Below, one piece after another: positions 17,004-20,264 of a DNA stretch of 64,000 bases. The position numbers and the translations under genes are program-made. The first letter of the stretch is position 1, and each line of letters begins with the position of its first letter. Where the stretch lies: NCBI RefSeq assembly GCF_055900595.2, contig NZ_CM148325.1; one strand, given 5' to 3'. The notes below the pieces were generated by a model that saw nothing but the letters and a program-made list of their open reading frames with translations, was not told where the DNA came from and ran no database searches.

Positions 17004-17520
<517 letters not shown>

Positions 17521-17726: not shown

Positions 17727-18002
17727 ATGTTCAGCCGTGTTTTAGCCCTTCTGGCTGTGCTTTTGCTAAGTGCAAATACATGGGCAGCCATTGAAATTAA
17801 TAACCACCAGGCCAGAAATATGGACGATGTGCAAAGCTTAGGCGTGATTTATATCAATCATAATTTCGCCACTGAAAGCGAAGCGCGTCAGGCATTAAAT
17901 GAAGAGACAAATGCGCAGGGCGCAACGTACTACCACGTGATTCTGATGCGGGAACCGGGGAGTAACGGCAATATGCACGCCAGCGCGGATATTTATCGCT
18001 AG
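17727..18002 (+). CDS. yjfY: Secreted DUF1471 (YdgH/BhsA/McbA-family) protein YjfY
   Basis: 91 aa with N-terminal signal peptide MFSRVLALLAVLLLSANTWA; RBS GAGGAGG. Confidence 0.9.
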   Translation: MFSRVLALLAVLLLSANTWAAIEINNHQARNMDDVQSLGVIYINHNFATESEARQALNEETNAQGATYYHVILMREPGSNGNMHASADIYR

Positions 18003-18043
18003 CACCAGGTATAACCAACGAAACATTGCCATAGTTTGCTTTG

Positions 18044-18066
18044 CCCCCTTCTCAGGGGGCTTTTTT
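18044..18066 (+). terminator. Intrinsic terminator after yjfY (gccccc-ttctca-gggggc + TTTTTT)
   Basis: Perfect GC stem followed by a six-T run, read directly. Confidence 0.85.
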
Positions 18067-18075
18067 ATGCGCCAT

Positions 18076-18627
18076 TCAACGAATAACGACTTCCGGATCC
18101 GGCTCATGAGTAATGCGATTACGTAAGTCGCGGCGCATAATTTCTATTATCCAGAACCAGAAAATGTGCCCAAGGATTTCAGATGCATATTCGTCAAAAG
18201 GCAATTGAGTGAGCGGCGGCGTTAAATTCAGCGCCGGGCAAAATATACCGTGGACTGCCACTGTCACAATAAGCCCTGCTAATATCCCCTGCCATAATTT
18301 CACTTTCGGGAAAATTTCCGCGACCACACAATACCCTATCGCAAAAACCAGTGAGAAGATGATATGCGTCACCATCACCGGGTTGATAATATGTTCCGAG
18401 AATGTATACACAGTTTGGGTTGGGTCGATCCCTAAATAATCCCGTAGAAAGATATACGGCGGATTAAACTCATCGCGACCACCGGAAAATGTGCGCGGTG
18501 GCAAGGGAACTTCCGCTCCCCATTTAACAAATGCTGAAATAATTCCTGAAAGTACACCCACAAGTAACGCAACGCCATAACGGCGACGCTGCGGATCCGT
18601 TCTGACAAACAATCCGTTGATAGCCAT
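18076..18627 (-). CDS. Putative inner membrane protein, YagU/DUF1440-like
   Basis: 183-aa ORF with several hydrophobic helices; segments [37 protein letters not shown] resemble the YagU family as I recall it; I do not recall a gene at this position in K-12. Confidence 0.6.
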
Positions 18628-18723
18628 AAAAACACCTGTTGTTTATACGATTTTTTAACTGAAACGGCCCCGGAATCAGACCAATTACATCCCGCAGGAG
18701 GTAATAATTCCGGGGCGCACTGC

Positions 18724-19410
18724 TTACTTCTGCCCGTAATAGGCGTTAGGACCGTGCTTACGCATGAAGTGTTTATTCATGAGATAGCTGTCGATGTGAT
18801 TCAGTTGTGGGTTAATGCCGCGGGCAATCCACGCCATTTTCGCCACTTCTTCCATCACCACCGCGTTATGCACCGCATCGTGAGCATCTTTCCCCCAGGC
18901 GAATGGCCCGTGCTGATACACCACAATTCCCGGCGTATGCAGCGGCTCGGCGTCACCCAGCGTTTCGATAATCACTTTGCCAGTGTTTAGCTCGTATTCC
19001 CCCTGCACTTCTTCTTCGCTTAACCCGCGCGTACAGGGGATATCGCCAAAGAAGTAGTCAGCATGCGTGGTGCCTAATGCCGGGATCGCCAGCCCCGCTT
19101 GCGCCCATGCGGTGGCATGCGTGGAATGGGTATGGACAATGCCGCCAAGCGACGGATAACGACGGTAGAGTTCAAGATGCGTCGCAGTGTCGGAAGACGG
19201 ACGATACTCCCCTTCCACCACCTTGCCGCTCATATCAACCACCACCATATCGTTCGCTTTCATGCTTTCGTAGGCGACGCCGCTGGGCTTGATCACCACC
19301 AGCCCGCGTTCGCGGTCAATGGCGCTGACGTTGCCCCAGGTAAAGGTCACCAGCCCGTAATGCGGCAGATCCATATTGGCTTCAAACACCTGCTGTTTTA
19401 GCTTTTGCAT
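18724..19410 (-). CDS. ulaF: L-ribulose-5-phosphate 4-epimerase UlaF
   Basis: 228-aa class II aldolase/epimerase ORF at the end of the ula operon. Confidence 0.93.
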
Positions 19411-20264
19411 TATGCCGCCTCCACCATGCCGGCTTTAGCCATGCGCGCTTTCACCCAATCACGCGCTTTCGCCACTTCTGCCGCCGGGTCTTCCGCCGTT
19501 TCGCTCCACATCTCAATCAGGTACGGCCCGCAATAGCCACTCTGTTTGAGCGTTTCAAAGCAACGTTCGAAATCCACTACGCCTTCGCCAAACGGCACGT
19601 TTTTGAAGACGCCTGGTTTGGTGTCTTTCACATGCACCGCGACGATATGCCCGATCCCGGCCTGCAACTCCATCTGCACGTCGTTATCCCACGCCGATAA
19701 GTTGCCGATATCCGGGTAGAGCTGGAACCACGGGTTGTTGAGATAGTGCGCGTAACCCAGCGCCTTGCTGATGGAGTTCATCAACGGGTAATCCATGATC
19801 TCCATTGCCAGCGTCACCTGCGCGCGGCTCGCCATCTCAACGCTCTCTTTCAGGCCGTCACGGAAACGACGACGCGTTTCGTTATTGGCTTCCTGATAGT
19901 AAACGTCGTAGCCCGCCAGTTGGATCACGCGAATACCGACATCCTGGGCGAACTGGATAGCTTTGCGCATAATCTCCAGCCCCTGCGCCCGCACTGCGTC
20001 ATCTTCGCTGCCCAGCGGGAAACGACGATGAGCAGAAAGGCACATGGATGGTACGCGCACGCCGGTTTCAACAATCGCGTTCACCAGCGCCAGACGCTGC
20101 TCGCGGCTCCAGTCAAGGCGCGAGAGGCGATCGTCCGTTTCATCTACCGACATCTCGACAAAATCGAAGCCTAACGTTTTTGCCAGTTGCAGCCGTTCCA
20201 GCCAGCACTCCCCGGCGGGGAGCGCTTTTTCGTAGATGCCAAGCGGGATTTGTTTGGACAACAT
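19410..20264 (-). CDS. ulaE: L-ribulose-5-phosphate 3-epimerase UlaE
   Basis: 284-aa TIM-barrel ORF; stop overlaps the ulaF start by 1 nt. Confidence 0.93.

Follow-up and report, generated by a model that had tools for sequence, protein, structure and literature searches.

Does the open reading frame (ORF) that lies between yjfY and ulaF in one E. coli chromosome represent a real gene, how did it come to occupy a place where K-12 has none, and what does its position at the end of the ascorbate (ula) operon say about its function? We addressed these questions in a stretch of 64,000 nucleotides from contig NZ_CM148325.1 (RefSeq assembly GCF_055900595.2), which is referred to as the window. The ORF belongs to the YagU (DUF1440) family, and we call it the short form. 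It was originally predicted to comprise 183 codons and to fill most of the 721-bp interval between its two neighbors, and the coordinates agree with this description (Table 1).

Table 1. Features of the yjfY-ulaF region, with positions counted along the window
Feature	Coordinates	Strand	Description
yjfY, convergent neighbor	17727..18002	+	Pfam YdgH/BhsA; DUF1471/YhcN-family periplasmic protein
yjfY intrinsic terminator hairpin	18043..18060	+	GCCCCCTTCTCAGGGGGC then T6; terminator scan
Indel segment	18067..18656	.	~590-592 bp; absent from K-12, ~89% of E. coli, and E. fergusonii; alignments
Short-form YagU-family (DUF1440) CDS	18076..18627	-	ATG start, 183 codons, 552 nt; predicted 183-aa inner-membrane protein
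Shine-Dalgarno AGGTG	18633..18637	-	Read from sequence, 5 nt before ATG
Stem-loop just past ulaF stop	18667..18716	-	Perfect inverted repeat; 10-bp outer arms 18667-18676 and 18707-18716
ulaF	18724..19410	-	L-Ribulose-5-phosphate 4-epimerase, last gene of ulaABCDEF; NCBIfam E 2e-152

The translated ORF matched the Pfam model of DUF1440 (PF07274) from the first to the last of its 135 positions, with residues 29 to 163 scoring 153.7 bits (E value of 3.9e-45) against a gathering cutoff of 34.7 bits. By BLASTP, residues 5 to 180 aligned with residues 2 to 198 of K-12 YagU at 57% identity and 71% positives (E value of 1e-81), and four transmembrane helices were predicted. The original prediction of a YagU/DUF1440-like inner-membrane protein, for which a DUF1440 profile search had been proposed as a check, is therefore borne out by a strong family match. 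A scan of the product against the NCBIfam models returned no family at an E value of 0.01 or less. Despite this, RefSeq names the product YagU family protein, and the identical coding sequence (CDS) is held there under this name as WP_032304369.1. The same protein is public on 404 contigs as [quoted passage not shown]. The gene is thus already known and catalogued in RefSeq with the correct family name; a literature search found no paper on the short-form YagU gene. All 353 homologues of the product are DUF1440 proteins, and the family is small, with 264 cluster representatives (50% identity) at an E value of 1e-3 or less among 1.84 billion proteins. Its distant members gave weak Pfam cross-matches to DUF6789 and YqhR, which are likewise uncharacterized. 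Searching the PDB with the single sequence yielded nothing beyond a chance match (E value of 1.7), and a profile of the family built from 46 sequences yielded no match there.

The short form was present in 603 of the 5,426 complete E. coli genomes that were searched (11.1%). The remaining genomes, approximately 89%, matched the window only up to about position 18066, and the gene is strain variable, as had been proposed. Of the 606 places that matched the gene, one is on a record labeled as a plasmid, and carriers otherwise have it at the yjfY-ulaF site. The allele found in the window is rare, with nine genomes at 99% identity or more and the other 594 between 95 and 99%. Carriers are scattered over lineages that include STEC, carbapenem-resistant clinical clones, and E. 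coli W (NC_017635, allele ECW_RS23320), which we take to belong to phylogroup B1. Salmonella seems to be polymorphic for the gene too. Several of its serovars and S. bongori have it, and S. Typhimurium LT2 apparently does not, judging from locus tag numbering: YjfO is STM4379 and YjfY is STM4389 (PMC4092069), and the nine tags between them correspond to yjfP, ulaR, ulaG, and ulaA to ulaF, so that LT2 has no annotated gene at this place.

Downstream of ulaF, the short form follows on the same strand after a gap of 96 bp. A consensus scan found no sigma-70-like promoter in this gap; its only two matches were both inside the CDS. The motif TATAAA, located 12 nt upstream of the ATG, was considered as a promoter and rejected because it has no usable -35 element. 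The most economical way to express the gene in this strain would therefore be transcription that reads through from the ula promoter. The stem-loop that lies between the two genes folds with -33 kcal/mol (z = -2.35), and 5 of its 16 pairs show compensatory changes among seven taxa. Its tail reads GUUUCAGUU in the window, UUUUUC in K-12 and E. fergusonii, and U8 in Pseudocitrobacter. Since the stable hairpin of the carriers and of E. whittamii is not followed by a U-tract, it probably either terminates leakily or stabilizes the mRNA, and in both cases ula transcripts would continue into the gene. The Shine-Dalgarno sequence AGGTG in front of the gene is conserved among the E. coli carriers and E. 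whittamii.

Conservation of the stem-loop extends across Escherichia, Salmonella, and Pseudocitrobacter, with a nearly invariant loop core, GGGATGTAATTGGTC, and at the sequence level it exceeds the needs of a plain terminator. An Rfam scan of the region from 17.4 to 19.0 kb gave no match to this hairpin. The same scan placed a subthreshold STnc280 match over the yjfY terminator and detected the RpsF leader (RF02893, 99.2 bits) at 17400-17481 on the minus strand, upstream of rpsF, as expected.

One genome per species was scanned for the short form and then subjected to synteny analysis. A DUF1440 gene follows ulaF in Escherichia, Salmonella, Pseudocitrobacter, two species of Hafnia, two species of Budvicia, and two further genomes. 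In Hafnia alvei and H. paralvei, it is located directly 3' of ulaF on the same strand, and the gap of 26 to 27 bp contains a Shine-Dalgarno sequence and no hairpin; enterobacterium L064 likewise has a Shine-Dalgarno sequence and no hairpin in a gap of 49 bp. In Budvicia aquatica and B. diplopodorum, the gene follows ulaF on the same strand after 190 and 102 bp, respectively. The genes on the far side of the short form differ in Hafnia and Budvicia. Coupling to ula is not uniform, as Pseudocitrobacter has a strong terminator (U8) and then a spacer of about 80 bp before the gene, and Salmonella has a U-rich hairpin tail and no obvious Shine-Dalgarno sequence. In approximately 40 other species, including members of Citrobacter, Klebsiella, Raoultella, Serratia, Providencia, Rahnella, and Vibrio, the orthologue is a solitary gene preceded by a gap of 200 to 600 bp, and its neighbors are unrelated. 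Given that Hafnia, with a gap of 26 bp and no terminator, and Budvicia likewise have the gene behind ulaF, the short form is probably a tail gene that the ula operon can dispense with. The placement of the short form beside the ascorbate regulon, which the original prediction had called unexplained, is thereby explained in part: the order ulaF-DUF1440 recurs in three separate clades within the Enterobacterales and, in Hafnia, resembles an operon. This recurrent and sometimes operonic adjacency is the new, if only mildly new, element of the analysis, and it provides a first testable context clue to the function of DUF1440.

A closer tie to ascorbate metabolism would make the short form a seventh ula gene, encoding an accessory membrane subunit or an assembly factor of the permease UlaA, or else a protein that exports or handles an ascorbate-derived by-product. 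In that case, selection would hold the gene at its place beside ulaF, and strains that lack it would use ascorbate less well in some niche. This is what the same-strand adjacency in three clades (Escherichia/Salmonella/Pseudocitrobacter, Hafnia, and Budvicia) with differing far-side genes could reflect, and the Hafnia gap of 26 bp with its Shine-Dalgarno sequence and no terminator fits as well, as do the intramembrane His, Glu, and Cys residues conserved across the aligned family. However, the ula pathway was defined in K-12 and works there without the gene. E. fergusonii and 89% of E. coli are without it too, as apparently is S. Typhimurium LT2. Most species bearing the orthologue keep it away from ula, and the adjacency could be mere retained ancestral order. 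Such a dedicated role in ascorbate transport or by-product handling appears improbable to us. We are also doubtful, while granting it some chance, that the short form could be a hitherto unrecognized, conditionally useful seventh ula gene of Enterobacterales, cotranscribed with the operon, whose product would protect or adapt the inner membrane during anaerobic ascorbate fermentation, for instance by shielding it from acid or envelope stress or by dealing with a by-product. If this were true, a niche-dependent relaxation of that need would be reflected in the repeated loss of the gene (most E. coli, E. fergusonii, and apparently S. Typhimurium LT2).

The yjfY-ulaF interval measures 129 bp in K-12 and 128 bp in E. 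fergusonii (CP057104.1). For K-12, an interval of about 270 bp and no gene had been expected; the length was wrong, and the absence of a gene was right, as the K-12 locus was checked and has no such gene at this position. In the alignment with K-12, the yjfY terminator and the post-ulaF hairpin are both retained, and approximately 590 bp between T-runs are missing. The segment is bounded in the window by TTTTTTA at 18061-18067 and 18651-18657, and the breakpoints are ambiguous within the T-runs. Directly to the left of the segment is the yjfY terminator. This hairpin is conserved in both E. fergusonii and K-12, and it also marks where the DUF1440 gene region ends on its 3' side. Essentially all noncarriers break at one point, matching query positions 1 to 367 (i.e., to about 18066), and E. 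fergusonii agrees with K-12 in this junction and in the derived sequence of the hairpin. In the alignments of K-12 and E. fergusonii, the sequence beside the deletion junction has diverged, which obscures the exact mechanism of the deletion.

The gene order ulaD-ulaE-ulaF, DUF1440, yjfY (reverse), rpsF-priB-rpsR-rplI was identical in five outgroup genomes. Their DUF1440 proteins share 98% (E. whittamii), 92% (a Salmonella contig), 89% (the S. bongori-like chromosome CP045914.1, with S. bongori in the same protein cluster), 87% (Pseudocitrobacter faecalis), and 86% (enterobacterium L064) amino acid identity with the window protein. The protein tree follows taxonomy, and divergence scales with species distance. 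The post-ulaF hairpin of the carriers is nearly identical to that of E. whittamii and has a 27-nt core in common with Salmonella; it is nearer to the Salmonella hairpin than that of K-12 is, the K-12 form being derived. A repeat search for terminal repeats or a target site duplication around the segment found short chance matches only, and no flanking insertion sequence (IS) elements, integrase, or mobile-element genes were found. Outgroup synteny, distance-scaled divergence, the E. fergusonii junction, the likeness of the hairpins, and the lack of mobile scars together give good support to two conclusions from sequence comparison: that the gene is ancestral, its arrangement going back to the ancestor that Escherichia, Salmonella, and Pseudocitrobacter have in common, and that the K-12 state results from one old deletion of approximately 0.59 kb that removed exactly this gene. 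A deletion in K-12, which had been offered as an alternative in the original prediction, is the correct polarity in light of the outgroup synteny and of the K-12 junction being common to E. fergusonii. Either descent or recombination has given E. fergusonii the deletion haplotype in common with E. coli; the window strain keeps the undeleted haplotype, which it shares with E. whittamii. The presence or absence of the gene is an ordinary old indel polymorphism and in itself matters little.

The opposite polarity would take K-12 as the original state and the short form as a recent horizontal acquisition, a small accessory insertion that a minority of E. coli lineages received between yjfY and ulaF. 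Its patchy occurrence in 11% of genomes from scattered lineages, its slightly low G+C content of 46 to 48%, and the copy on the plasmid-labeled record could be taken in this sense. However, yjfY has the same G+C content as the gene, with no clear composition anomaly, and synteny is identical in Salmonella, the S. bongori-like genome, E. whittamii, and Pseudocitrobacter, where divergence increases in proportion to the distance between the species. An acquisition is likewise at odds with the presence of at least three allele classes within E. coli that are 2 to 3% diverged, with the lack of terminal repeats, target duplication, integrase, or IS elements, and with a hairpin that resembles that of Salmonella in the carriers and is derived in K-12. 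Horizontal acquisition is largely refuted by these observations, and we regard it as very unlikely.

Over a region of approximately 68 nt downstream of ulaF (18657-18723; K-12 locus 1868-1932), the two haplotypes differ far more than the flanking genes do. BLASTN of this post-ulaF intergenic segment against K-12 gave no reportable match; by contrast, identity to K-12 is 94% for ulaF and 98% for yjfY. In the deletion haplotype, the segment may either have evolved fast after the deletion or have originated from a divergent lineage. The ula genes of the window (18724-20264) are unusually diverged from K-12 for E. coli, with nucleotide identities of 94.0% for ulaF and 95.7% for ulaE and a dS of about 0.26 for ulaF. 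Between P. faecalis and the window, ulaE and ulaF are 94 and 92% identical, respectively, whereas the yjfY and DUF1440 genes are only 72 to 73% identical, and this contrast suggests an exchange of ula genes between genera with a boundary at the end of ulaF.

Selection on the short form was evaluated with the alleles of six diverse E. coli strains (the window strain, SCEC020007, W, 2013C-3264, LHM10-1, and OkiPb01713). All of them are intact and 552 nt long, with 26 segregating sites and three variable residues, and they fall into at least three classes about 2 to 3% apart. Identity among the alleles ranges from 96.6 to 99.8%, and identity to E. whittamii is 93 to 94%; a recent import of the window allele from E. 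whittamii was considered and rejected, as the E. coli alleles are closer to each other. The window differs from another E. coli allele by 15 synonymous and 2 nonsynonymous changes and from E. whittamii by 28 and 3, and across the E. coli alleles, the differences from E. whittamii amount to 28 to 35 synonymous and 2 to 3 nonsynonymous changes. Pairwise pN/pS values were 0.02 to 0.10, both within E. coli and between species; against Salmonella, dN was 0.067, and dS was saturated. By these measures, the short-form gene is under strong purifying selection. The excess of synonymous changes relative to the E. coli allele and E. whittamii, together with the full-length DUF1440 match, argues against a chance ORF, and the reading frame at 18076-18627 is evidently a real, functional gene for a DUF1440 inner-membrane protein. 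That it is instead a decaying remnant or an annotation artifact, open by chance in the window strain, might be supposed from its dispensability in most E. coli, the lack of a strong predicted promoter, and the missing NCBIfam match, but this has next to no probability given the full-length Pfam match of 153.7 bits, the pN/pS range of 0.02 to 0.10, six of six alleles intact and of equal length, the good Shine-Dalgarno sequence, and orthologues 75 to 92% identical across Enterobacterales.

Hydropathy and charge distribution predict that both termini of the product are inside (N-in/C-in), with four transmembrane helices, which an AlphaFold2 model (pLDDT of 79.7, pTM of 0.75) places at approximately residues 17 to 39, 83 to 105, 115 to 132, and 144 to 173. 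The N terminus, the loop at residues 105 to 112, and the C terminus are rich in K and R, in a positive-inside pattern, and a periplasmic loop of about 45 residues is predicted to be acidic. In the alignment of 46 sequences, K35, E39, R45, D68, H88, C100, E104, Q113, H126, E146, E150, W157, W159, and E162 are invariant, and all of these residues are present in the window protein. According to the model, the invariant K35, E39, H88, H126, E146, and E150 and the nearly invariant H154 would be positioned near the periplasmic face of the membrane. The protein has conserved His and Glu residues near this predicted face, and its neighbor yjfY belongs to the stress-linked DUF1471 family.

It is acid outside the cell, and not in the cytoplasm, that strongly induces yagU in K-12 (PMC2270276), and a yagU mutant has a three-fold lower survival at pH 2 (PMC1626474). 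A CpxR ChIP-exo peak lies upstream of yagU, which is also a member of the CpxR iModulon (PMC7657598). The link of the family to acid resistance drawn in the original prediction is documented for K-12 YagU (PMC1626474, PMC2270276); for the short-form paralogue, it stands as an analogy. From this analogy with a paralogue that is 57% identical and has an extra Cys loop, we suggest, with low confidence, that the short form may have a role in envelope or acid stress. In the proposed mechanism, most transcription of the gene would start at the UlaR/CRP-controlled ulaABCDEF promoter and read through the hairpin that has no U-tract, and the gene would be coexpressed with an anaerobic, acid-producing fermentation pathway. 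Its product would be an envelope- or acid-stress-protective membrane protein like YagU and not an ascorbate enzyme or transporter. We consider this explanation as a whole, in which a functional short-form gene at its ancestral site was removed by one K-12-type deletion and would serve as a ula tail cistron with a stress role, to be likely.

Three known systems can be set beside the short form. In common with the ulaABCDEF operon, it has its orientation, an adjacency that extends over five genera, and an operon-like arrangement in Hafnia. It is not a member of the operon as defined in K-12, where the known pathway is complete without it, and a conserved hairpin stands between ulaF and the short form in Escherichia and Salmonella.

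K-12 YagU (b0287) is collinear with the ORF product from the N-terminal RRRYG motif to the C-terminal motif and has the same four predicted transmembrane helices and conserved H, E, C, and W residues. The two differ in length, with 183 amino acids in the ORF product and 204 in YagU. YagU proper, with a length of about 200 to 216 amino acids, is defined by a Cys-bracketed insertion between the first transmembrane helix and the NPPY motif; in K-12, this is a periplasmic loop of about 20 residues between two cysteines, CGPESLIRAAGQIDC. The ORF product lacks it, showing a gap of 21 residues at this place in the BLASTP alignment and no cysteines there, in line with the multiple alignment, and we therefore assign it to a short-form paralogue and not to a YagU orthologue. 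Orthologues elsewhere in Enterobacterales (Salmonella enterica Montevideo, Ibadan, and Oranienburg, S. bongori, Pseudocitrobacter, Citrobacter, Hafnia, Klebsiella oxytoca, Serratia, and others) are 75 to 92% identical and 183 to 187 amino acids long and likewise lack the Cys loop. Canonical yagU is about 67% identical to the short form at the nucleotide level and occupies a separate locus, and most carriers have both genes. The long form is not universal either: in E. coli strain 12689 (NZ_CP074982.1, 1147624-1147782), yagU is cut to a 3' fragment by an IS600-family element beside an integrase gene, and 468 of the 5,426 E. coli genomes have no blastn match to either paralogue. The 89% of E. 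coli without the short form are natural knockouts, and E. coli W would be a convenient host for a first phenotype. In K-12, yagU adjoins paoABC/ykgJ, whereas the short form is located between ulaF and yjfY, and acid induction, CpxR control, and the phenotype at pH 2 are on record for K-12 YagU only. The two genes form a clean natural paralogue pair, a long form with the Cys loop and a short form without it.
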